In this document: positions 43,225-63,456 of the stretch, piece by piece | Position numbering within the stretch: position 1 is the first letter of the stretch | How the letters are laid out: the number at the start of each line of letters is the position of its first letter | Assembly: GCA_964595945.1 (NCBI GenBank) | Contig: CAZQSL010000005.1 | Span: 1-63,456, forward strand | Reading direction: 5' to 3' | Source of the DNA: an uncultured bacterium | GTDB lineage: Bacteria; UBP15; UBA6099; JAJRTR01 | Length of the DNA stretch: 63,456 nucleotides | Program-made: the position numbers and the translations under genes | Notes under the pieces: generated by a model | Told to the model about the DNA's origin: nothing | Database searches by the model: none | The model's input: only the letters and a program-made list of their open reading frames with translations

Positions 43225-45189
43225 ATGAATAAACAGACTCCGGTTGCGATCAAGACGATACTTCTCATCGTCGCTATCGCCGGTTTTGTGTCTTCAGGTT
43301 ATGTGCTGTACAGGCGCGCCGGCTATGAAATGGCATCAAAAACGGTGCGGATTGTAATGGATTCGCGCTCCATAGCCGCCGCGCAGCCGCCGGGCATGTC
43401 TAACGAAGACGCGCTTGCCGAATTCAGAAAACTCGGCATCGACACGGTCGGCGTCTATGAGTATTCGGCTAAAAAGCTCGTACGCGGGCGCACTCTCGGC
43501 ATGTACGAAAGCCCCGCGATATATGGCGGAAAATCACGGCCGGGCATGTTGCTCAAAGGCGATGCCATCTATGAAATCCCCGCGATGAATGATATGCTCA
43601 GCGCATATTTCGGGACAAAGCCTTGTTACATGAATGAAAAAGCCGGCTGGCGCGAATGCAATATCCCCGCCATCGGTTCCGACCAGCTCGAAAAGCTGTC
43701 ATTCGGACTCGAACCCGTGCCGTCTGCCATGAAAGCAGCTCCCCGACTCTACAATACCCCATTCGAGACGAAAGAATCCATCGCTCTCAAGATCGCGCAG
43801 GCCGCGGACGCAAACGCTGCCGGCATTATCATTTTTGACGGCGACGCGGTACTCGGCTATCCCAATCTGACCGGCGTGACGGCAGAAGAAGTGCTGAAAC
43901 ACGACAATCTACTCGTCGGCTATCTCGAACTATCGGGCCAGGATGGCGAAAAGCCTCTGGCATCGAAGTTGCGTGACCGGATCGTCGAGGTGCATGGCAT
44001 ACCCGAAGAGGAAATGGCTGTCACGCCTCCAGCGAAAGCTGTCGCGCGATTTCGCCGCGCGGTGCGTGAGCGTGGCATCAGAGTGCTTTATGTGAGACTT
44101 TACCCGGCTCTCGGCGGATTGCAGCCGCAGGAGTCATTCGCCAAAAATGTCGAATATGTGAAATCAATCAAGGAAGCGATTGAAAATGACGGTTACACAC
44201 TTGGACAGGTGAAGCCGCTGCCGCCATTCGAGACCGATGTTAAGATCAGAGTCGCGCGCGCCATGACGGTGGCCGGAGCGGTGGCGCTCGTGGCGCTGCT
44301 GCTGGCGCTGACAGGTGTCAGCCTGCCGGTGTGGCTGATCGCGGCGGGGCTGGCCGGAGGGCTTGGCGCTCCGATGGCGCTGGCCACGGGAGGCAGTCTG
44401 TCGGTAATGGTCTTCAAGCTTGCGGGGCTTGCGGTGGCGTGTTTGGTGCCCGCACTCGCAGTAGTCGTTTTTTTCCTGCCCGAAGACCGGAAATATGACG
44501 GGTCAGGCCTGATTTTCAAAAACAACGCCGTCGCTTTCGTCGCTGCTACAGCCATAACGATGGCTGGCGGCATGATGTTGGCCGCGATGATTTCCGAACG
44601 TGTATTTTTCCTCAGGATAGCTGTCTTCTCGGGCGTCAAGCTGGCATTTGTCATGCCACTCGCGATCATCGCACTGTACTATCTCAGCCGCACGAAAGAG
44701 GGTGCGCTCGAATTTCTCTCGTCGAATGTCAGATATGTCGAAATAGTGGCCGGAGTGCTTGCGGTCGCCGCCCTTGCCATCTATATCATGAGGTCGGGCA
44801 ACAACAGTCCGGCTGAGGCGAGCGCGGTGGAGTCTGCACTGAGGCTGAAACTCGAAGACATATTCATCGCGCGGCCGCGGACCAAGGAATTTCTGATCGG
44901 ACATCCGGCGCTGTTGCTCGCGGGCCTGTTCCCCTTTGCCAAAAAGCGTTATACGGTGCTGCTCGTGCTGCTTGCGGGCGTGATCGGACAGATCAGCGTG
45001 ATGAACACCTTTTGCCACGCGCATACGCCGATCATGCTGACGTGGTTCCGTGTTTCGCTCGGAGTACTGCTCGGTCTGGCGGTGGGGACTGGGCTGCGGC
45101 TTGTGCTCGCTCCGGTACTGTTCCTGATTTCGGCGGACGGCTGGTCATGGTATCCTCAGAAGGACAGCCGTGACCGAAGAGAATCATAG
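43225..45189 (+). CDS. DUF5693-like membrane protein (usually csaB-associated)
   Basis: RERGIRVLYVR, FSGVKL, RPRTKEFLIGHP, NTFCHAHTP motifs recalled from this family; multi-TM C-half. Confidence 0.75.
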   Translation: MNKQTPVAIKTILLIVAIAGFVSSGYVLYRRAGYEMASKTVRIVMDSRSIAAAQPPGMSNEDALAEFRKLGIDTVGVYEYSAKKLVRGRTLGMYESPAIYGGKSRPGMLLKGDAIYEIPAMNDMLSAYFGTKPCYMNEKAGWRECNIPAIGSDQLEKLSFGLEPVPSAMKAAPRLYNTPFETKESIALKIAQAADANAAGIIIFDGDAVLGYPNLTGVTAEEVLKHDNLLVGYLELSGQDGEKPLASKLRDRIVEVHGIPEEEMAVTPPAKAVARFRRAVRERGIRVLYVRLYPALGGLQPQESFAKNVEYVKSIKEAIENDGYTLGQVKPLPPFETDVKIRVARAMTVAGAVALVALLLALTGVSLPVWLIAAGLAGGLGAPMALATGGSLSVMVFKLAGLAVACLVPALAVVVFFLPEDRKYDGSGLIFKNNAVAFVAATAITMAGGMMLAAMISERVFFLRIAVFSGVKLAFVMPLAIIALYYLSRTKEGALEFLSSNVRYVEIVAGVLAVAALAIYIMRSGNNSPAEASAVESALRLKLEDIFIARPRTKEFLIGHPALLLAGLFPFAKKRYTVLLVLLAGVIGQISVMNTFCHAHTPIMLTWFRVSLGVLLGLAVGTGLRLVLAPVLFLISADGWSWYPQKDSRDRRES

Positions 45190-45981: not shown

Positions 45982-47625
45982 ATGGATACACTTGCGATAT
46001 TGACAGCGGCAGCGGCAGCAGTGTCGGCAATGCTGGCTGTAGTGGCATTGGGACACGGGATGAGGCGCCGGGGCGCCGGGACACCCCTTATAGTGGCCGG
46101 AGCGATAATACTTGCCGGAGCAGGCTGGATATGTCTCGGAGGGCTGCCCGGCGGCGCTGGAGTAGCGTCACTCTTCGCGGTGGCATGCTGGACGCTCGGC
46201 TATGTCATCACCTCGCGCGGCACGTGGGTGTTTCCATCGGTCGGAATAGGTGCGCTGTTTGTTTTTGTGACGACAGCGGCAGTACTTGTGCTCGATCCCG
46301 TCCTGCCTCGCGACTCCGCATCGGGATGGATTGTCAATACGCTCGGCATCTGCGTCTCTGCGGCGGCCATCGCAGCAGCCGTGGCGCGCAAAGGCCCTGG
46401 ACGTCACTATTTTATGCAGGCGGCTGTTTTCATGCTCCTGCATTACCTTGCCCCAGTCGCCGAATACACATTGGCGATACAGGCCCTACCCGTGTGGGCA
46501 TCGCCTCTCGCGATGGTCATCGCCATCGCTTCGATGTTTTACTATCAGGACGCCATCAGCCTGCATGACCCGAGAGAAGACTCGGTGACGGTTGTCGACA
46601 AGGCATTCTGTTACGATGTCGCGTCGGCAGCCCTCAAAAAGCTCGAACAGGTCGGCGGGGCGACCGGCGCGGATTTCGAAAACTATGCCCGGGCATTTGC
46701 GGAAACGCTCATCGACGGAGGCTGGTACACGAGGATTTTCCTCGGCCGCGAAGACAAGCCGCGCGGACGCTGCCTTTTTACGGATGAATTTCTCGCGCCA
46801 CCAGAAGACGACACAAGTTCGTACGGCGTGATCACAACGTTCAGCCTGCCGAGCGCGGTATGCCTCGAAGCATTTGAAAACGGCAGGTCGCTGCTGGTGG
46901 AGTCCTCGGCCTCGGCGACGGTGAAGGCTGCCTTTTCGCGCATCGGCATCGAAGCGGCCATCATCGTGCCGCTCCCGGATATAGAGGCCGGAGCCGCCAT
47001 GCTGCTCATTGGCATGAGGGGCGACGATCTTGTGCCGGATGTCAACGATGCGCTCAGGCTCGACGGCGTCGCGTCGCATCTCGCGGCCTATCGCCCGAAG
47101 CAGACGCTCGCCACGGAGTCCGACGCCCCTGCTTCCCCGGGTTCGGTCGATACCGTGACCGGCGTCCGCAGCTTCACCGCTTTTCAGCAGATACTTGGTG
47201 AAGAAATGATGGAAGCCGACAAAAACGGCACAGCCTTCGGGCTCCTGTTTGTCGATTTTGATCACTATTCGGACGTCAACCGGCGCGTCGGCTATGACCA
47301 GGCCGATAAAATACTGCGTGATGTAGCCGTCAAACTCAGTTCTTATGCCATGAAAGGCTGCGTAGGCCGCATAGGTTCGGACGAACTCGCCGCCCTGCTC
47401 AAAACCGGCGCGGATGACGCCCGCCAACTCGTAGAAACCATCGTCAGCGAAATGAACGAATCTCTGAAAAACGAATATCCCGAAGCGGTGGCTACAATGT
47501 CCGCCGCCTATACGATATATCCGATCGACTTCTGCGAACAGACGGCGGTATTCGGTAAACTGCGCGAAATGCTCAGTTCGGGCGATCCCATGCCGGGACA
47601 CATTGTCAGGGTCAAGGTCGGATAG
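45982..47625 (+). CDS. Membrane protein with GAF-like and degenerate GGDEF domains
   Basis: About 6 TMs; DTVTGV, LLFVDFD, RIGSDEL in place of RxGGDEF. Confidence 0.75.
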   Translation: MDTLAILTAAAAAVSAMLAVVALGHGMRRRGAGTPLIVAGAIILAGAGWICLGGLPGGAGVASLFAVACWTLGYVITSRGTWVFPSVGIGALFVFVTTAAVLVLDPVLPRDSASGWIVNTLGICVSAAAIAAAVARKGPGRHYFMQAAVFMLLHYLAPVAEYTLAIQALPVWASPLAMVIAIASMFYYQDAISLHDPREDSVTVVDKAFCYDVASAALKKLEQVGGATGADFENYARAFAETLIDGGWYTRIFLGREDKPRGRCLFTDEFLAPPEDDTSSYGVITTFSLPSAVCLEAFENGRSLLVESSASATVKAAFSRIGIEAAIIVPLPDIEAGAAMLLIGMRGDDLVPDVNDALRLDGVASHLAAYRPKQTLATESDAPASPGSVDTVTGVRSFTAFQQILGEEMMEADKNGTAFGLLFVDFDHYSDVNRRVGYDQADKILRDVAVKLSSYAMKGCVGRIGSDELAALLKTGADDARQLVETIVSEMNESLKNEYPEAVATMSAAYTIYPIDFCEQTAVFGKLREMLSSGDPMPGHIVRVKVG

Positions 47626-54511: not shown

Positions 54512-55960
54512 ATGAAATTTCGCAAAAGATTACGACTATTGTTTATCGGTCTTGCGGTACTGACGAATGGGCTGCTGATGCTGATAATGTATTTGTTCAT
54601 GAAAAATTCGATGTTCGCTATGATACAGAGTCAGGTAATGTCGATCGCGGCGGCTGCGGCAGTGAATCTGGATGCCGGCCTGCACGTCGAGGCAGTGAAA
54701 AACGGGCAGGAATCGGAAGAGTACGAAAAAATCTATGCGCAATTGGGAAAGATACGAAACGCTAACAGGCGCGACGATGTCTATGTGAGGTTTATCTACA
54801 CACTTGTGCCGGGCAGTGATGTGGGCAAGAAGGAAAAATTCGTGTTTGCCGTCGATGCCGAAGAGGAAAACACCGGCGATCAATCGAAACTTGGCGACGT
54901 GTTCTCCAATAGCAACCCGAAGGTAAAAATAGACAAGCCATACGTGTCGGACAAGTACGATGTGGACAAGTGGGGCGTGTGGCTGACTGCGTACTATCCC
55001 CTGAGGGACGCGCAAGGAAGGCCAGTCGCGCTGCTTGGGGTTGACGTGAGGGCGTCCGATGTGCAGAAGAAACTCGATGCGGTCCTGTACACCGGTCTCG
55101 GGTGCCTTGCGCTGAGCGTGCTGATCGCGCTCATCGTGGCTATCCGCATGGCCAACCGCGTGTCCGATCCGCTCGAAAAGATCAAGGATGCGGTCGTGAG
55201 GATAGGCAGGGGGGAATTCGGGGTCAACGTGGATATCCACACAAAGGACGAATTCGGGCAGGTCGCCGATGCGATCAATGAAATGACTCGCGGGCTCAAG
55301 GAACGCGAACTGCTCAAGACATCGCTTGCCAACTATGTCTCCGCGGAAGTGGCCAACAGCATCCTTTCGTCCGGTGCGCTCCCCACCATCACGGGCAGCC
55401 GCTGCAAGATAACTGTCCTGTTTTCTGACATAAGGAATTTTACGACACTTTCCGAGTCGCGCGAACCCGAAGAGGTCGTGGCGCTGCTCAATGAGTATTT
55501 CGAGCGCATGATCGACATAATATTCCGCCACCAGGGCATGCTCGATAAATTTATCGGCGATGGCATACTCTGCATCTTCGGCGCTCCGATCGACGATCCG
55601 CAGCAGGAACTCCATGCCGTACAGGCAGCGTTTGAGATGCAGGAGGCCGTCATCAAGCTGCGAGACAAGTGGGGGATCGAAAAATCCATCGACTTTCGCG
55701 TCGGCATCGGCATCCATACCGGGCCTGCAATCGTGGGCAACATCGGCTCGTCCGAACGCATGGAATACACGGCGATCGGTGACACGGTCAATCTCGCGTC
55801 GAGACTCGAGTCGGCTTCGAAAGACCTCAAGGCAAGCATCGTCATCAGTGACACCACGTATGAGGCGGTCAGTGACAAGTACTGTTTCGAAGAGGGTGGC
55901 TCGATCACTGTCAAGGGCAGAAATGCTCCGGTCAAGGTATACGCGGTCAATAGAAAATGA
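54512..55960 (+). CDS. Class III adenylate cyclase (TM, sensor domain, TM, HAMP, catalytic domain)
   Basis: VLFSDIRNFT, LDKFIGDG, YTAIGDTVNLASRLE; Lys and Asp specificity residues indicate ATP. Confidence 0.93.
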   Translation: MKFRKRLRLLFIGLAVLTNGLLMLIMYLFMKNSMFAMIQSQVMSIAAAAAVNLDAGLHVEAVKNGQESEEYEKIYAQLGKIRNANRRDDVYVRFIYTLVPGSDVGKKEKFVFAVDAEEENTGDQSKLGDVFSNSNPKVKIDKPYVSDKYDVDKWGVWLTAYYPLRDAQGRPVALLGVDVRASDVQKKLDAVLYTGLGCLALSVLIALIVAIRMANRVSDPLEKIKDAVVRIGRGEFGVNVDIHTKDEFGQVADAINEMTRGLKERELLKTSLANYVSAEVANSILSSGALPTITGSRCKITVLFSDIRNFTTLSESREPEEVVALLNEYFERMIDIIFRHQGMLDKFIGDGILCIFGAPIDDPQQELHAVQAAFEMQEAVIKLRDKWGIEKSIDFRVGIGIHTGPAIVGNIGSSERMEYTAIGDTVNLASRLESASKDLKASIVISDTTYEAVSDKYCFEEGGSITVKGRNAPVKVYAVNRK

Positions 55961-56404
55961 GACCTCGCCGGGTTTGCATGCTCTGTATCAGCAGGCGCAT
56001 AGCTGCCAGTAGACAGACATAGCTGACATGGGTTGTCCATGTCGCCTTGAACATTCCCGCCAGTGCGCAGCAGCACCGGGCGGGGTAGGGCGGGGGCGGT
56101 ATGGGGTCCCGTGCGGGTTTGTTTTTCACCTGAAAATGGCTTGCCGGTAATTAAGCGCTCCGTTTTTCGTGATGCTGGCCATTAGCCGGCTGAGGTGCCT
56201 GCCGCGGAGAATTGTATAAGTGTGCGACAGGGTAAAACCCGCTGTGGCGATACGGAATTATGTGAAAAACATTTATCTTGTCATATCATTGGTAACGTGA
56301 GATAATCTAAACAGAAGACTTGTAAGTAAATGCCGGGCCATTAACCCCATCGCGTCTGCGATGAGTGGGAAGAATACGGAAACCGATTTCCGGAGGAGGC
56401 AGAA

Positions 56405-57226
56405 ATACTTCCACAATTTGATACTTATCCGCCTCTTTATTTCGGGTTTATCGGGCTGTTTGTAGGGAGTTTCCTCAATGTATGCGTGTGGAGGCTGCCC
56501 CGGGGAGAATCGATAGCTTGGCCCGGGTCGCACTGTCCGGCCTGCGGCAGCAGGCTCAGCGCAATGGAGCTTATCCCACTGGCGAGCTGGCTGTATCAGA
56601 AGCGAAGATGCAGGGCATGCGCCGCGAAGATATCGGGAAGATACCCGGCGGTGGAGATCGTGACCGGAATCGCATTTTACTATGCGTCAGTCAGCGCTGA
56701 CGGAACATTTTTGGTTTTTCTGCAAAAAGCGCTTCTGTTTTCAGGACTGATCATAGTTTTTCTGGTCGATATGGATCACATGATAATACCGGATGTGGTG
56801 ATCCTGCCGCTTGCGGTGACGGGGATGGTGATATCGGCGGCGGGTACGGTGATGCCGGGGCTGGAAGGCGTGCCGGACTGGAAAGACGCGCTGGTCACGG
56901 CAGGGATAGGGTTCGGAGTGTTTCTCGCCATAAAAGTGGGAGGCACACTGGTGGCGGGCAGAGAGGCGATGGGATTCGGAGATGTCAAATTTGCCGCGAT
57001 GCTCGGGGTTTTTCTGGGGAGGGACCTTTTTCTGGCGGGGATGTTCCTCGCTTTTCTGATCGGAGCTCTTGTTGCGATACCGCTGCTGCTCCTGAGGGGA
57101 AGGGGGATGAGAGAAAATGTGCCGTTCGGTCCCATGATGGTGGCTGGCGCGGTGGTGGCTCTCGTCGGGGGGCAGCAGTTGATCGACTGGTATGGAAGAT
57201 GGATGGGCAGATTATGGTTATATTGA
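56405..57226 (+). CDS. pilD: Prepilin peptidase / N-methyltransferase; start probably upstream of the GTG at 56486
   Basis: GSFLNVC, SHCPACG, CRAC, RYPAVE, DHMIIPD, MGFGDVK, VPFGP; the conserved GSFLNV is encoded upstream of the first GTG; in-frame ATA at 56405 behind GGAGGAGG. Confidence 0.9.
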   Translation: MLPQFDTYPPLYFGFIGLFVGSFLNVCVWRLPRGESIAWPGSHCPACGSRLSAMELIPLASWLYQKRRCRACAAKISGRYPAVEIVTGIAFYYASVSADGTFLVFLQKALLFSGLIIVFLVDMDHMIIPDVVILPLAVTGMVISAAGTVMPGLEGVPDWKDALVTAGIGFGVFLAIKVGGTLVAGREAMGFGDVKFAAMLGVFLGRDLFLAGMFLAFLIGALVAIPLLLLRGRGMRENVPFGPMMVAGAVVALVGGQQLIDWYGRWMGRLWLY

Positions 57227-57299
57227 CATATTATGGTTGGAGTCTGACGTAAAGCGGTAAATAGTCAGTAGGCAGATTGAAATTGGAAGGTGTTCAGAA

Positions 57300-57983
57300 A
57301 TGAACATTTTTAAATTGAGTGAAAAACCGAAGAACCTGATTTCGATCCGTCGGGGAGATGGCGAAAAGGGGTTCACTTTTGTCGAAGTGATGATAGCCAT
57401 GACTATCCTTGTGTCCGTGATGATAGGGATAGCGATGTCGCTGAACACGGCCATGGCGCAACTGAAGGAACTGCGGGTCAAGCGAACCGCGAACGATTGC
57501 GGCAGGGCGATCATGGAATATCTGTCTACACTGCCGCCGGATGTGGTGTATGCGGCATCGCCGGGGACTCCCATCGTGGGCGACTTCAGCACCGGCGGCA
57601 TCCTGCAACTCAAGCAGTTCGTATACGGCTCGGAGCTGGACAATATCCCGACGGCATGTATGGAAATGTCAAATCCGGCCAGCGTAGTCGGCAAACGGGT
57701 GAATATGAAATATAGTATATGCCCCGGATGCAATGCCTATACCGAAGAAGACACTACCGGCGGCGCCAACGATTATCATACGTGCAAATATACAATAAAA
57801 GTGCGGATCGAATACAACGGTTTGCACCTTGCTCGGAGTGTGGACAAACCGCACAAAATTGACTTTATGAAACAATTGTACGAAGGAAAGGCATATCCGT
57901 GTGTCGACACGGCCGGGATAGGCGTGTCGGTATGTGGGATAGGTTCGGACAACCCGGACACACCCAAAATGTGCTATTTCTAA
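57300..57983 (+). CDS. PilV-like minor pilin
   Basis: KG|FTFVEVMIAMTIL class III signal with Glu5; 8 Cys. Confidence 0.85.
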   Translation: MNIFKLSEKPKNLISIRRGDGEKGFTFVEVMIAMTILVSVMIGIAMSLNTAMAQLKELRVKRTANDCGRAIMEYLSTLPPDVVYAASPGTPIVGDFSTGGILQLKQFVYGSELDNIPTACMEMSNPASVVGKRVNMKYSICPGCNAYTEEDTTGGANDYHTCKYTIKVRIEYNGLHLARSVDKPHKIDFMKQLYEGKAYPCVDTAGIGVSVCGIGSDNPDTPKMCYF

Positions 57984-58006
57984 TCGCTCCGTATCGGGAG
58001 ACCGCG

Positions 58007-58864
58007 ATGGATGGTATAAACAATAAAAGATATGTCCGCTCACAGGCCGGATATTCGCTCGTAGAGCTCATGGTTGTGTTGTGGCTCATAGTGATAATCA
58101 CGATAGCGATTTCGCACTTGCTCACCAACACGGCCAAAATAGTCACCGATGTCTCAAGAGAAAATTTCGCCCAGAGCAGAGTCGAACAGATAGTCTCCCA
58201 GATAGCCGACGACTTCAGGTCGGCGGGGTCGGATGATTTCCGCCATATCAGCGATGGCTCGACCTCTATTTATTTCCACTTTGTGCGATACATGCAGAAC
58301 ATGGATGCCTACGCTCCAGGCAATGCGGACACGGCATACGATCTCGCCTGTTACAGATTTGTGCCTCCTTCGGACGCAAATAACCCTTTTGCCGCCAATT
58401 ATGTCCCCGGCTACATCGAAACCGGGACAACCCCCGGGGCCGGGACATCATGCGACAGCCTGACACAGGGCATGTACAAACTCACCGACAACTATACGGA
58501 TATCCGCAAATTTGAAGTGCAGTTCTGCCAGCCGGGGGCATCGGCCGGCACCTTCGACTGCTTCAACTCCATCGACAATGCGACGATCGACGATACTCCG
58601 CCAATCTACTCTCACACGGCCATGTGTGTCTGGATCGTGAAAATCAATGTGGAATACGCGAGAATCACGCCAAAAACCGGAAACTCGATGGCGCCCGACC
58701 GCTACGAAAAACTGACATCGAGGTATTCGACGGCAGTCAAGCTCCGCAATCCCTATTCCATGTCACTCTTTATCGACGAAGACAAAGACGGAATAGTCGA
58801 CTGCTGCGACGCGACATACGGAATGGCAGGCGGCACATGGTGTCCCGCGCCAGTCAGTCAATAA
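58007..58864 (+). CDS. PilW-like minor pilin
   Basis: AG|YSLVELMVVLWL with Glu5; QIADDFRSAG helix; VKLRN near the C-terminus; 8 Cys. Confidence 0.85.
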   Translation: MDGINNKRYVRSQAGYSLVELMVVLWLIVIITIAISHLLTNTAKIVTDVSRENFAQSRVEQIVSQIADDFRSAGSDDFRHISDGSTSIYFHFVRYMQNMDAYAPGNADTAYDLACYRFVPPSDANNPFAANYVPGYIETGTTPGAGTSCDSLTQGMYKLTDNYTDIRKFEVQFCQPGASAGTFDCFNSIDNATIDDTPPIYSHTAMCVWIVKINVEYARITPKTGNSMAPDRYEKLTSRYSTAVKLRNPYSMSLFIDEDKDGIVDCCDATYGMAGGTWCPAPVSQ

Positions 58865-58898
58865 GCCAACAAGAAACGAAATCATTCGGGGTGCTGGC

Positions 58899-61800
58899 AT
58901 GTTCAACAAACTGAAACAAATGATGAATGACCGCAGGGAAGGCGGCTCGATCATTGTCCTTTCGATAATGACACTCGCCATTATGTCGATGATAGGAGCC
59001 TCGTTCAGCATGATGGTGTCGAGCGAAGCCCGGTCGGTCACATCGGACTGGCTCGCGCAGCAGGCCCTTTATGCGGCCGAATCGGGGATTCAGGACGTCC
59101 TGTACCAGCGCTCCAAAAAACCCGCCCAGACATGTTTCCCCTTCTTTTACAAAGACCCTGAAATCGACGAAAAAGATACCGATACATATTCTACAGTCGG
59201 TAGTGTCAACACCGCCCTCAAGACATCGAGCGACGAAAAAGTCGTACTGCTCACCGGCGCCAGCGCAGGCATGAACGCCGATGGTGCCCCGGCCGGCAAT
59301 CCGTCCACCGACATGGACGAAGCCGGCGCCCCCGGCACGGACAAAATGGCCTGCGGCATCTATCAGCTATCAACCGACGCGCAGAGCCGCGCGGAATATC
59401 TGCCCTGCTGGCCATACAACGAAAGGCTGTACGAAAACTCGATCCAGTGGGGGCCCGACTTTCACTGCCATGACGGCTCCACCAATCCGGATTGCTCGAC
59501 ATCAGAGGAAGGCGGCGGCTGCACGGACGCCAACGACGTTTCCAACAGAGACTGCTACTCCCCGCTTTTCTGGTGGCCGGCATCTCCCGATGGCGCCCAC
59601 ATCGGATGGAAAGACGTCTATGACCGCACCGAAGACGGCACCGATATCGAACTGCCGCTCACCAGCGCCTCGGCCGGCACTGGCGCACGCTACACGACGG
59701 GTTTCTTCACCCTGTGCAACGATGACTTTTCAGGCATAGAAGCATCTATGGTCGGCTATGACAACGCCTGCACCGACGCACAGAGCGGACAGCCATGTGA
59801 CAGATACGTGACACGGCTCACGGTCGTGTCGGTAGGCGAAGTGCAAAACGGCAGCCAGGTGGTGCGCCGCGCCGTCAAGATCGACATGCAGCCGCCCGCC
59901 CTCTTCACCGGCGTTATCGACCAGTATGTCAACACCGATTTCTGGGGCGTCTCCAACATCAACGGCCCGCTCCACATTAATGGACTCAGAAACGACGGCA
60001 AATGGTATTCATTCCTCAATCTCCTCGGCGGCACGGTCGGCGCGCTTTTCGACGCGCCTGACCTCGTCAGCGTCAGCTATCCCGAAGACCCGGCCAATCC
60101 CGACTGGCAGCCAACTGTCGCGGGATTTTCGATAACTCACAAAATAACTTACGTCCATATCCCGTTCCGACTCGATCTTCCCGCCGTCAACTGGGACAAA
60201 TGGGAAGACCAGATGGCGGACCTTTACACCCAGGCTCTCGCCGAGTACAACACGACAAACGTCTATCCTCTCAAACGATGCGAATTCACCCATCCCGTGA
60301 CCTCCACTGCCAAAGACTGCGGCAGCAGCGACGGCGTCGACCACTACACTCTCAATCTCGGCACCACCGACCAGGACCGCGACGCAGCGTTTCCGGCGTT
60401 CATGTCGATGACCAAACGCTACAACACCGGCGTTGATAAAATTCACAACTTCCAGCGCTACAATTCGGACGCGCAGCAGTGGGGCGCATCAACAGCCCAT
60501 GTATTCGATCTCTTCGACCACTGGGAAGAGTATCCCTACACATGGGTCGAAGGCACGGAACCCCCGGTCATCAATGGCGGCACTGGCCCGAGGGACAGAT
60601 CGCTCCGGCCCAAAGTATCGTTCATGCTTAATCCCAACCTCGGCCTCGGCTGCCTCACGTGCGTCATCGGCGATCTCTCCATCGCCGGATTTATGTCCTG
60701 CTGCGTCGGCAAGGAGGAAAACAGACCCGAATTCGTATTCATGGGAAAACACGAATTCCGCGACTTCGTCTTCATCGACGGCATCATCGGCATCGGACAG
60801 CGAGCCCCGTGGCACACCTGCGGCGACGGCGACGGCGGACTGGGGGTGTACTGCATTGTCATTCCCAACCTCTGCCTGCTGTCATTCGGTGGATCATGCG
60901 TAATCGAAATACCGGGATTTTCATTCGGACTGCCGCACTGGCATACGGGCGCAGCTATAGTCACGGGCGAAATGCTCGTCAACGGACGCCTGCACATGGC
61001 GGACTACATACACATAGACGGCGGTACAATCTATGCCGATGGACACATAATAAAGGATGAGTCCAGCGCCTACGACATCACCATCAACCTCCAGGACCTC
61101 CTCTGCTGGCTCCTCGGTCCCATCACCACCATGACGATATCCATCCCCATATTCGGCGATCTGAGCATCAATCTCTGCGACATCATATTCGCCATCGCCG
61201 GCCCCATCATAAGCGCCATGGTCCCCTGGTGGCCAGAGATCAACCTGACCAACAGCGAACTTCTCGATTTCGAGACATACCTCGACATCGACGGCATAGG
61301 CCCATCGTACTCAAGCGGCATCATCAACCCAGGCACTCTGTACACACACGGCGACTTCCGCCTCATGACCCCCGGGTGGGACGCGACATCATTCATCGCC
61401 AACACCATCATAGGGTTACTGATACCATGGCTGAAGCTCGAATCCTCGGTCGACCCGATACGAATATACAACGGAGGCGCCATAGTCGCAGGCGGCACCA
61501 CCAGCGGCAATACGTTCCTGCACGGCAATATATATCTCGACAAACACAAGAGAGCCGACCTCCTTACATACAACCCCGAAACCGATGAAAACGACACCGG
61601 ATACGTCATAGCCCGCGGAGCCGTCAGCATCTGGAGCGACATCATCTCCCACTACGGCATGCTCGGACTGACAAACGGATGCTCGACCACTGTATTCTCA
61701 GGCGGAGGTCTCGACGAAGACTGCGCCGCAAACGGAATCTTCTACTCCGGCGGCTACGCAGCAGGAGCGACCAACAAATTTACCGCCTTCGGGCGCAGCA

Positions 61801-62132
61801 CATTATCAGTAGACCAGCCCGAAGGAAGCCTCGACAAAACCCTCGCCTCTGCGTGCGAACCCCTCCTCACGGGCAATATCATGACTGCCCCATGCTGGCT
61901 CACTGCCGTCACCGACCTGCTCACACCAGGCAACACCAACGAATACAATATCCGCGGCCACCTCTTCGCCGGAGCGGTCGGCGCAATGGCAGGCACTCAC
62001 ATCAGACTCGACCAGGACACATCAGTCAGAAACGAAGCCGTAAAACGCCAGTACTACAAGCAGCTCAGCGGCACTCCCATCAACTGGCAGGAAATCGAAC
62101 CCCCTGCCAACCTGCCACACCTCGAAGACTGA
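58899..62132 (+). CDS. Giant PilX-like minor pilin / adhesin (1077 aa)
   Basis: EGG|SIIVL without Glu5; QALYAAESGI PilX motif; LTVVSVGEV...RRAVKI strands; repeated solenoid-like motifs; terminal INWQEI; 26 Cys. Confidence 0.85.
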   Translation: MFNKLKQMMNDRREGGSIIVLSIMTLAIMSMIGASFSMMVSSEARSVTSDWLAQQALYAAESGIQDVLYQRSKKPAQTCFPFFYKDPEIDEKDTDTYSTVGSVNTALKTSSDEKVVLLTGASAGMNADGAPAGNPSTDMDEAGAPGTDKMACGIYQLSTDAQSRAEYLPCWPYNERLYENSIQWGPDFHCHDGSTNPDCSTSEEGGGCTDANDVSNRDCYSPLFWWPASPDGAHIGWKDVYDRTEDGTDIELPLTSASAGTGARYTTGFFTLCNDDFSGIEASMVGYDNACTDAQSGQPCDRYVTRLTVVSVGEVQNGSQVVRRAVKIDMQPPALFTGVIDQYVNTDFWGVSNINGPLHINGLRNDGKWYSFLNLLGGTVGALFDAPDLVSVSYPEDPANPDWQPTVAGFSITHKITYVHIPFRLDLPAVNWDKWEDQMADLYTQALAEYNTTNVYPLKRCEFTHPVTSTAKDCGSSDGVDHYTLNLGTTDQDRDAAFPAFMSMTKRYNTGVDKIHNFQRYNSDAQQWGASTAHVFDLFDHWEEYPYTWVEGTEPPVINGGTGPRDRSLRPKVSFMLNPNLGLGCLTCVIGDLSIAGFMSCCVGKEENRPEFVFMGKHEFRDFVFIDGIIGIGQRAPWHTCGDGDGGLGVYCIVIPNLCLLSFGGSCVIEIPGFSFGLPHWHTGAAIVTGEMLVNGRLHMADYIHIDGGTIYADGHIIKDESSAYDITINLQDLLCWLLGPITTMTISIPIFGDLSINLCDIIFAIAGPIISAMVPWWPEINLTNSELLDFETYLDIDGIGPSYSSGIINPGTLYTHGDFRLMTPGWDATSFIANTIIGLLIPWLKLESSVDPIRIYNGGAIVAGGTTSGNTFLHGNIYLDKHKRADLLTYNPETDENDTGYVIARGAVSIWSDIISHYGMLGLTNGCSTTVFSGGGLDEDCAANGIFYSGGYAAGATNKFTAFGRSTLSVDQPEGSLDKTLASACEPLLTGNIMTAPCWLTAVTDLLTPGNTNEYNIRGHLFAGAVGAMAGTHIRLDQDTSVRNEAVKRQYYKQLSGTPINWQEIEPPANLPHLED

Positions 62133-62154: not shown

Positions 62155-62179
62155 AGAGCCCCCTCCACAAGGGGGCTCT
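62155..62179 (+). terminator. Hairpin after pilX without a U-tract
   Basis: AGAGCCCCC-tccacaa-GGGGGCTCT. Confidence 0.5.
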
Positions 62180-62463
62180 GTGATTAACGGAAAGATTGCA
62201 AGGCCCATCCCCCCCCCCATTATTTCTGTTACCGCATCCAAAAAAGAAAGGAAACCATTCATCAACCGCACAACACAGAGGCACAAACCACAGAACACAC
62301 CCACCCAAAAACAACAATAGAAAACCATTCCTGACTATCCCTGAAAAACAGACGAGTAATGAATGGCGAGATTACAAAAACACGATCATACCCGGGACAA
62401 TAACAGCGAAGAATCCCGCAACTCTGAGTTTCAGGGGTAATCAGGAAAACTTTTACCAGCCTA

Positions 62464-62718
62464 TTGCAATAATCCCTCACACCCACTACAATACTCTTCG
62501 CCTGACAGAAACAAAGGGCACTGAGAAACTTGAAACCATAGACACCGAGCGGCTGACAAAACAAGCCGTCACGGAATCCCCGAAAAAAAAAGCTTTCCGA
62601 AAAGCTTGCAAATAAACTCAGGCACGCTATAATATAAAACGCTCTGAGAAACGAAGCTGAACGGAAAAAGAAAACTTTCGCGGAGTGGTTGACAAAAGAT
62701 AACACGACATAGTAAAAT
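62464..62718 (+). promoter_or_regulatory. Tandem sigma70 promoters of the rRNA operon
   Basis: TTGCAA-N17-TACAAT (62464-62492), TTGCAA-N16-TATAAT (62606-62633), TTGACA-N18-TAAAAT (62689-62718); A-tracts precede the last two. Confidence 0.75.

Positions 62719-62893: not shown

Positions 62894-63456
<563 letters not shown>

Follow-up and report, generated by a model that had tools for sequence, protein, structure and literature searches.

A prepilin peptidase-linked trio of minor pilin-like proteins, one of them giant, as a probable pilus initiation and tip complex in an uncultured UBP15-related lineage

A peptidase gene followed by three pilin-like genes

Contig CAZQSL010000005.1 (assembly GCA_964595945.1), from an uncultured bacterium assigned to UBP15, was analysed over positions 1 to 63,456, and this whole stretch is called the window here. 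It carries a cassette of four plus-strand genes (56405-62132), tightly packed with intergenic gaps of 73, 23 and 34 nucleotides (nt), which encode a prepilin peptidase and three pilin-like proteins, the last of them a giant of 1077 amino acids (aa) (Table 1). An earlier note on this DNA had described the four genes, and counts of open reading frames (ORFs) and cysteines bear out its coordinates, strand, sizes and Cys numbers.

Table 1. Genes of the cassette and candidate signals around it
Feature	Position	Strand	Details
Sigma-70-like promoter candidate	56278..56306	+	TTGTCA-17-GATAAT with upstream TG; 10/12 consensus matches, pattern match only
Shine-Dalgarno-like element, GGAGGAGG	56392..56399	+	5 nt before ATA 56405, read from the sequence
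Prepilin peptidase / N-methyltransferase, PilD-like	56405..57226	+	273 aa if the start is ATA 56405
Minor pilin 1, I-type position	57300..57983	+	227 aa; 24-aa leader; G24|FTFVE; 8 Cys
Minor pilin 2, J-type position	58007..58864	+	285 aa; G15|YSLVE; 8 Cys
Giant K/PilX-type pilin-like protein	58899..62132	+	1077 aa; leader ends at G16; 26 Cys
GC-rich hairpin	62156..62178	+	GAGCCCCCT-ccaca-AGGGGGCTC; perfect 9-bp stem, without U-tract

The first gene encodes a prepilin peptidase of the PilD type (MEROPS A24A), with a Cys-rich methyltransferase domain and both Asp motifs. The protein matches the Pfam families A24_N_bact (4.7e-24, 84.7 bits) and Peptidase_A24 (1.1e-16, 61.6 bits), and it contains a CxxC...CxxC arrangement (C44, C47, C69, C72) as well as the motifs VDMDHMIIPD and GFGDVKF. 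Between the stop codon at 56342 and position 56486, the peptidase frame contains no ATG, GTG or TTG, and the first in-frame canonical start, GTG 56486, would cut off the first membrane helix (…LYFGFIGLFVGSFLNV). By tblastn, the peptidase shares 44-49% of its residues with the PilD proteins of relatives over its full length, including the part encoded upstream of 56486, and at the corresponding position the relatives use GTG or TTG as the start codon. In addition, the spacer 'cagaa' that separates the Shine-Dalgarno-like element from ATA 56405 also precedes the ATG of the 227-aa gene. On these sequence features, ATA 56405 is likely to be the start of the peptidase gene, and the noncanonical codon is not a one-off assembly error, since contigs from two independent DNA runs agree on it.

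The three genes that follow all encode proteins with the class III signal of type IV pilin-like proteins (G|FTFVE, G|YSLVE and G|SIIVL). Glu+5 is present in the first two only, and the giant protein keeps Gly-1 (G16|SIIVL) without Glu5. These three adjacent genes thus stand in I-J-K order with a Glu5/Glu5/none pattern, as in a GspI-J-K-like arrangement, and motifs and alignments here agree with the peptidase-linked trio that the earlier note had described. The 227-aa protein scores above the cutoff of Pfam N_methyl (4.6e-06; 26.4 bits against 21.2) and the 285-aa protein slightly under it (7.6e-04; 19.4 bits), while the giant protein matches Pfam PilX_N (PF14341) over residues 16-64 with 27.4 bits against a cutoff of 25.5. 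One of its homologues, P0007, is named in its source as a 'pilus assembly PilX N-terminal domain-containing protein'. Beyond N_methyl and PilX_N, the Pfam scan (E <= 1) gave no pilin-family match, and NCBIfam gave no match for the giant protein. Curated models of PilV, GspH/I/J and ComG match the N-terminal helix only and score far below their cutoffs (gspI, 14.5 against 44.35; type_IV_pilV, 12.6-14.6 against 52.2; gspH, 13.8-15.9 against 80), and the giant protein and the other scanned window ORFs have no Pfam domain of PilY1/PilC. Two further candidate families were rejected: the Verru_Chthon cassette (TIGR02596-02600), whose protein C model reaches 11 bits against a cutoff of 256.5 and covers the N-terminus only, and, on score, the Hps pseudopilins, for which the HpsB matches are N-terminal and sub-cutoff. 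At the level of sequence, family membership is limited to the class III signal (N_methyl), PilX_N and peptidase A24 and does not extend to PilV, PilW, FimU or GspH-K; the V and W in the names PilV and PilW, which the earlier note had used for the two small proteins, are positional only.

Profile-profile comparison of the three pilin-like families finds likeness in the N-terminal helix alone, and they are therefore not recent paralogues. Lengths of 227 and 285 aa are roughly ordinary for PilV- and PilW-type minor pilins, so that the description of all three proteins as unusually large holds for the 1077-aa protein only. Likewise, cysteine makes up 2.6% of the cassette proteins and 1.5% of 27 other window proteins, a modest difference, and the earlier label 'Cys-rich' is better applied to positions: judged from the alignments described below, the real cysteine signal is one of conserved positions and not of content.

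Two small families with conserved cysteines

In both small families, Gly-1, Glu+5 and most cysteines show no variation. In the 227-aa family alignment (A2, 10 homologues), G24, E29 and 7 Cys are invariant. The CPGC at its residues 141-144 (57720-57731) is nearly invariant, with CPAC in one homologue; a pair of this kind may form a disulfide, act in redox chemistry or bind metal. The giant protein has a CxxC pair as well (CLTC), and inspection by eye found no heme motif (CxxCH) in the three pilin-like proteins.

In the 285-aa family (alignment A3), G15, E20, C115, C267, C279, D257 and D265 are invariant. A D-x-[DN]-x-[DN]-x-x-x-D loop at residues 257-265 (58775-58801; DEDKDGIVD in the window) is found in 8 of 9 homologues and directly precedes a CC pair, which is followed by WCP near the C-terminus. 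The spacing of the loop is that of an EF-hand-like or thrombospondin-type-3 site, and we regard it as a putative Ca2+ site on the strength of this motif. When the profiles of both small families were compared with solved structures, they matched N-terminal helices only, apart from chance matches to picornavirus VP2, and word-indexed searching for homologues of the 285-aa family yielded only 3 proteins, with no named relatives among them.

A giant protein of an orphan family

The giant protein has 21 further homologues among 5.8 billion clustered proteins, almost all of full length, with BLASTP identities of 37-51%, and all come from metagenome-assembled genomes (MAGs) labelled as uncultured "bacterium". 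In the family alignment (21 homologues, 42-55% alignment identity), 16 Cys are invariant, Gly-1 is nearly so, and Glu5 is absent. Seven His are also invariant (H359, H420, H516, H618, H639, H680 and H682), together with many Asp/Glu. The C-terminus is strongly conserved (RLDQDxSVRxxAVTRxYFKQLGGxPIDWMEIxPPxNLPxL), its last 40 residues being among the best conserved of the family, and the conserved C-terminal strand reads PINWQEI (1060-1066) in the window protein. No EF-hand-like loop occurs at conserved positions of the giant protein.

An exhaustive profile search of 1.84 billion representatives recovered about 8 full-length giant relatives, two of which are divergent (898 and 1004 aa), plus fragments. 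The remaining matches cover only positions ~1-70 (a few to ~125), which correspond to the PilX-type helix region, and the globular ~1000 residues thus form an orphan family. Searched by sequence against solved structures, the family profile gave nothing even at E <= 10. Other PilX_N proteins of 600-980 aa in metagenomes bear unrelated passengers such as FG-GAP repeats, and the modular pilin theme is therefore broad.

A first AlphaFold2 (AF2) model of the giant protein, built from 21 sequences, had a mean predicted local distance difference test score (pLDDT) of 54.9 and was too poor for use. A second, built from 25 sequences after three divergent relatives had been added, reached a pLDDT of 66.5 and a predicted template-modelling score of 0.64, with 532 residues at pLDDT >= 70. 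It places an N-terminal helix at 2-73, sheet strands at 263-330 and a terminal strand at 1063-1066, and the beta-rich region of about 340-1045 includes numerous short strands at ~570-1040, mostly with pLDDT 80-95. The region of about 75-222 is variable, Cys-rich and loop-like, and of low confidence in the model. In Foldseek searches of the PDB, Thermus ComZ (6qvi) ranks first for both models, a match that is not significant (E 0.35 for model 1 and 6.5e-3 for model 2; probability 0.08-0.11; template-modelling score (TM) <= 0.10); with model 2, it spans 559 co-linear columns. Weaker matches are to beta-helix autotransporters and to beta-helix proteases/adhesins (3h09, 3syj), and a viral structure library gave nothing. 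The second model is consistent with, though not proof of, a pilin-like domain that carries a solenoid-like insertion.

Conserved gene order and pilus machinery in related genomes

The giant gene is carried by 12 loci from species-representative genomes (given L numbers below), all of them uncultured "bacterium" MAGs and one labelled UBP15_UBA6099. tblastn synteny and gene calls show a conserved order, in which PilD is followed by a protein of ~205-230 aa, a protein of ~270-290 aa and then one or two proteins of ~1000 aa. The 227-aa gene directly follows PilD in all related loci that cover that stretch. Since full-length homologues (25-55% identity) occur in the same order across 12 loci, the cassette genes are real and not chance ORFs.

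In six of these loci (L003, L004, L008, L009, L010, L013), the cassette is embedded in a larger type IVa cluster. Upstream of it lie a T2SSE ATPase (353-379 aa, PilT-sized), T2SSF and one or two PilA/GspG-like pilins, and downstream lie PilM_2, PilN, PilO, a 284-aa protein and the secretin. In two more (L005, L011), PilM-N-O and the secretin directly follow the giant gene, while L001, L006 and L014 are split variants, as in the window. No PilB-sized extension ATPase was seen in the related clusters. Type IV machinery (ATPase, PilC, PilM-N-O, secretin) thus accompanies the cassette in relatives, and none of it lies in the window: among the 37 other scanned window ORFs there is no PilY1, FimU or other pilus gene. 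The absence of PilY1 that the note had pointed out extends to the 12 related loci, where no PilY1-like gene is on record.

The pilins that adjoin PilD in relatives score best against Myxococcus PilA, and the two PilA/GspG-like pilins upstream of PilD could be either the major pilin or H-type. Because PilD in relatives sits between major-pilin genes and the cassette pilins, it is probably the general peptidase of the whole pilus system. The phrase 'own prepilin peptidase' in the earlier note is hence not supported, PilD being part of one large cluster in relatives, and its 'minimal, no FimU' is true of the window only, given the two PilA/GspG-like pilins upstream of PilD in relatives. Both expressions reflect where the cluster of this genome is split.

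Two tandem giant genes are present in six related loci, against one in the window. Where tandem copies were compared (L003, 6541-13255; L001, 10001-16078; L014, 5513-11949), they are ~80-82% identical within a genome and ~40% between genomes, a pattern that implies either separate duplication events or gene conversion. The first 50 residues, which hold the leader and the start of the helix, diverge most in two of these three pairs. In L010 (7802-9088), the I-position pilin gene is tandemly duplicated (208 and 214 aa) beside a single giant gene, and in L013 (7598-7975), a PD-(D/E)XK nuclease-family gene (PDDEXK_3, 8.4e-41) lies between PilD and the first minor pilin.

Assembly support and transcription

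Contigs from two DNA runs match the cassette region exactly, including ATA at 56405. Public contigs stop at 62448 and continue there with different sequence, and sequencing depth in the two DNA runs jumps about fivefold (from about 6 to about 30) at 62237-62467. The link from the cassette to the ribosomal RNA (rRNA) operon therefore passes through repeated DNA, and the window assembly is the single source for the join to the 16S gene.

In a metatranscriptome-labelled run from a different study, contigs are >=99% identical to the window over 57305-57484, 58842-59000 and 59946-60446, and so touch parts of the 227-aa gene, the junction of the 285-aa and giant genes, and the giant gene. The cassette is probably transcribed, and the contig over the 285-aa/giant junction suggests co-transcription in situ, with DNA carry-over possible in such libraries.

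Large pilin-like proteins at pilus tips in other bacteria

The closest parallel in design is ComZ, which together with PilA2 serves as a tip pilin of the Thermus thermophilus competence pilus (6qvi; PMC6561018). ComZ combines a GspK-like pilin fold with a beta-solenoid of ~380 residues and is argued to have room only at the tip (PMC6561018). Like the giant protein, it comes from a minor-pilin locus and is unrecognised by standard pilin motifs; its large solenoid is inserted before the last strand in a system without PilY1, and it is the top, non-significant fold match of the giant protein. In contrast, it is about half the size (solved chains of ~500 residues), has no detectable sequence similarity to the giant protein and has DNA as its ligand; the invariant residues of the giant protein include 16 Cys and seven His.

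In cyanobacteria, a phylum without PilY1, all PilX homologues bear a solenoid that is proposed to act as a PilY1-like plug (bioRxiv 10.64898/2026.02.12.705559). Of the families there (PilX_Com and PilX_EPS/HpsA), the EPS subfamily is likewise very large. However, the cyanobacterial FimT-PilW-PilV-PilX sets contain four minor pilins, including one of the FimT/H type, whereas the cassette described here has three; moreover, the lineage differs, and PilD is linked to the cassette here.

A framework for such proteins comes from work on the PilI/J/K licensing complex, in which a K-type pilin either receives its terminal strand from PilC/PilY1 in trans or provides it itself in cis. Where tip adhesins are missing, the PilK homologue carries large insertions between its sheet and the donor C-terminal strand (PMC13533445). 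The cassette shares with this complex the I-J-K order, the Glu5/Glu5/none pattern and a K subunit presumed to be apical, and the C-terminal strand motif of the giant protein is conserved. The experiments behind the framework come from Neisseria, Acinetobacter and Caulobacter, outside the lineage described here, and by sequence the cassette proteins do not belong to the PilV, PilW and GspI/J/K families.

PilY1/PilC and MshQ resemble the giant protein in size (~1000-1200 residues), in being encoded right after minor pilins and in their proposed double role as tip adhesin and assembly factor. Unlike it, PilY1, PilC and MshQ are not pilins and dock through a strand donated in trans, while the N-terminus of the giant protein is of the pilin type and Pfam shows no PilY1 domain in it. 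PilY1 is reported to be calcium-dependent (PMC8833165), and the cassette too has a Ca-loop-like motif, though in the 285-aa protein. Lastly, CpaL/TadG of Tad pili also joins a pilin-like N-terminal domain, a large middle passenger and a C-terminal strand, and a K-type pilin with a big insertion that replaces PilY1 has been described for CpaL and others (PMC13533445). CpaL/TadG and the other large PilX_N proteins differ in pilus class (Tad, type IVc) and in passengers, and the other large PilX_N proteins have no similarity to the giant protein beyond the first ~70 residues.

A proposed initiation and tip complex

We consider that the cassette probably encodes a complex of the PilI/J/K type (PilV/W/X, GspI/J/K), which would initiate a type IVa pilus and form its tip in a UBP15-related uncultured lineage. 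Motifs, their conservation, gene order, the co-location of machine genes in relatives and the predicted helix-plus-beta-rich architecture are the observations on which this reading builds; the trimer, the addition of a strand in cis and the tip location of the giant protein are what we infer from them. PilD would cleave the leaders after Gly-1 and methylate the new N-termini. The 227-aa and 285-aa Glu5 proteins would occupy the PilI/PilV/GspI and PilJ/PilW/GspJ positions, and the 1077-aa protein the apical PilK/PilX/GspK position, since its N-terminal helix is of the PilX type and Glu5 is missing, as one would predict for a first subunit without a partner above it. The conserved strand at its C-terminus probably closes its pilin-like sheet in cis, which would leave the beta-rich region of ~700 residues as an insertion at the pilus tip, stabilised by disulfides or metal. 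Such an insertion would do the capping and adhesion that are the job of PilY1/PilC elsewhere, and the trimer would prime polymerisation of a major pilin encoded elsewhere in the genome. The pilus machine of this genome is itself assumed from relatives, because machine genes are missing from the window.

Several points weigh against this interpretation. The ORF scan of the 63-kb window found neither motor, platform or alignment genes of a pilus nor a gene for a secretin or major pilin, and the peptidase gene is without a canonical start codon. In sequence searches, none of the three proteins matched a solved structure or curated family in its globular part, and a fourth, H-type (FimU/GspH) subunit was not identified. 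In the structural model, the pilin-domain part (75-222, 272-306) and the stretch 1050-1062 are of low confidence, and the fold match to ComZ is below significance (E 6.5e-3, probability 0.11, TM 0.06-0.10).

The design of a tip pilin with a built-in module is already known from Thermus and cyanobacteria, and the cassette does not represent a new type of machine, but its protein family is new. What is also new here is an orphan passenger of ~1000 residues that has many conserved Cys and His and is restricted to one uncultured lineage, along with a three-gene set joined in order to PilD and the frequent tandem duplication of the giant gene. The earlier note had placed the adhesin function within the pilins, and the large extra mass indeed lies inside the last of them; this built-in adhesin idea and the I-J-K logic both stand. 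Its further suggestion of a possibly new tip-complex type is weakened by the published analogues, the principle being on record for ComZ, PilX and CpaL, while no homologous cassette has been characterised: the same architecture has been described by analogy only, not by homology.

A priming and tip complex is a requirement of type IV pili, and how systems without PilY1 cap their fibre and bind targets has been explained only recently, by K-type pilins with an insertion and a terminal strand of their own. The cassette extends this solution to an uncultured candidate phylum of anaerobic digesters, hydrocarbon-degrading enrichment cultures and the subsurface, for which a literature search on UBP15 / UBA6099 returned nothing on pili. 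With its three proteins, it is a compact system in which to test the cis strand-addition model, and it offers a route to what these uncultured bacteria attach to. A bolder and rather unlikely extension is that the Cys/His-rich module of ~700 residues belongs to an undescribed class of tip effectors from one uncultured phylum, which would go beyond passive adhesion and be metal-binding or catalytic, carried on a retractile fibre. The seven invariant His, the 16 invariant Cys, the many invariant acidic residues and the lack of relatives outside the lineage are compatible with it. Such effectors may serve, for example, in polymer degradation or in contact with syntrophic partners in anaerobic consortia, and tandem copies may be alternative tips.

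Alternative explanations

One may ask whether the cassette instead primes a short secretion pseudopilus, for type II or Hps-like polysaccharide secretion, in which the giant protein would be a GspK/HpsA analogue with the task of gating or pushing cargo. The gene order and the Glu5 pattern are those of GspI-J-K, the N-termini weakly match GspH/I/J and HpsB models, the comparably huge cyanobacterial PilX_EPS/HpsA proteins are tied to polysaccharide secretion, and the related clusters lack a visible PilB-sized extension ATPase. However, the Gsp and Hps models match only the N-terminal helix and far under cutoff, the pilins beside PilD score best against Myxococcus PilA, and relatives have PilM_2, PilN, PilO, a secretin and a PilT-sized ATPase, a type IVa set and not GspC/L/M, which makes this explanation improbable.

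Similarly improbable is that the same tip complex serves DNA uptake, with the giant protein as the ComZ-like DNA receptor of a competence pilus instead of an adhesin. ComZ tops the structural matches for both models, occupies an equivalent minor-pilin locus and binds DNA, and one of the two cyanobacterial PilX sets serves competence. Nevertheless, the fold match lacks significance, ComZ is half as large as the giant protein and has no sequence similarity to it, and no ComEA-, ComEC- or DprA-type genes were seen in the window or related clusters. Tandem, diverging giant copies (~80% identity) would also suit varied ligands better than DNA.

The giant protein might also be a modular pilin or a pilin-anchored surface enzyme, which would use its class III signal for export and anchoring or for insertion into the fibre and act outside any initiation complex. 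Pilins with bulky modules exist, as is reported for S. sanguinis PilB; seven invariant His and many Asp/Glu could form a catalytic or metal site; and the weak fold matches include beta-helix proteases and adhesins (3h09, 3syj). Yet the PilX_N helix and the missing Glu5 point to an apical subunit, and wherever related loci include the two Glu5 minor pilins, the giant gene strictly follows them. A globular mass of ~1000 aa is, moreover, unlikely within the body of a fibre, an argument that has been made for ComZ at half the size, and we judge this alternative quite remote. Least probable is that the window copy is a displaced and decaying remnant, cut off from its machine genes and with a damaged peptidase start, as might be read from the lack of upstream pilins and downstream PilMNOQ that most relatives have, the lack of ATG, GTG or TTG between 56342 and 56486 and a single giant gene where six related loci have two, since all four reading frames are intact and of full length against homologues, the conserved Cys and motifs are all retained, split arrangements recur in L001, L006 and L014, and the sequence is confirmed by two DNA runs, with three of the genes covered by the metatranscriptome-labelled run.

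Flanking signals and neighbouring genes

The promoter candidate in Table 1 sits ~100 nt upstream of the peptidase gene. At the other end, the hairpin lies 24 nt past the stop codon of the giant gene and has a fold energy of -25.2 kcal/mol (z = -3.2 against shuffles). The terminator scan omitted it because it has no T-run, and as a sequence feature it is a possible candidate for the end of the transcription unit. Promoter-like sites follow downstream at 62606-62718, and then the start of the 16S rRNA at 62894.

The direct upstream neighbour of the cassette encodes a HAMP-domain adenylate/guanylate cyclase (54512-55960), and in the related locus L013, a cyclic-nucleotide-binding protein (144-1481) is encoded upstream of the pilus cluster. 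Type IV pili are under cyclic AMP control in other bacteria. A GGDEF protein is also encoded near the cassette (45982-47625), and the window further encodes a 654-aa protein (43225-45189) that matches DUF5693 over its full length (3.5e-118).

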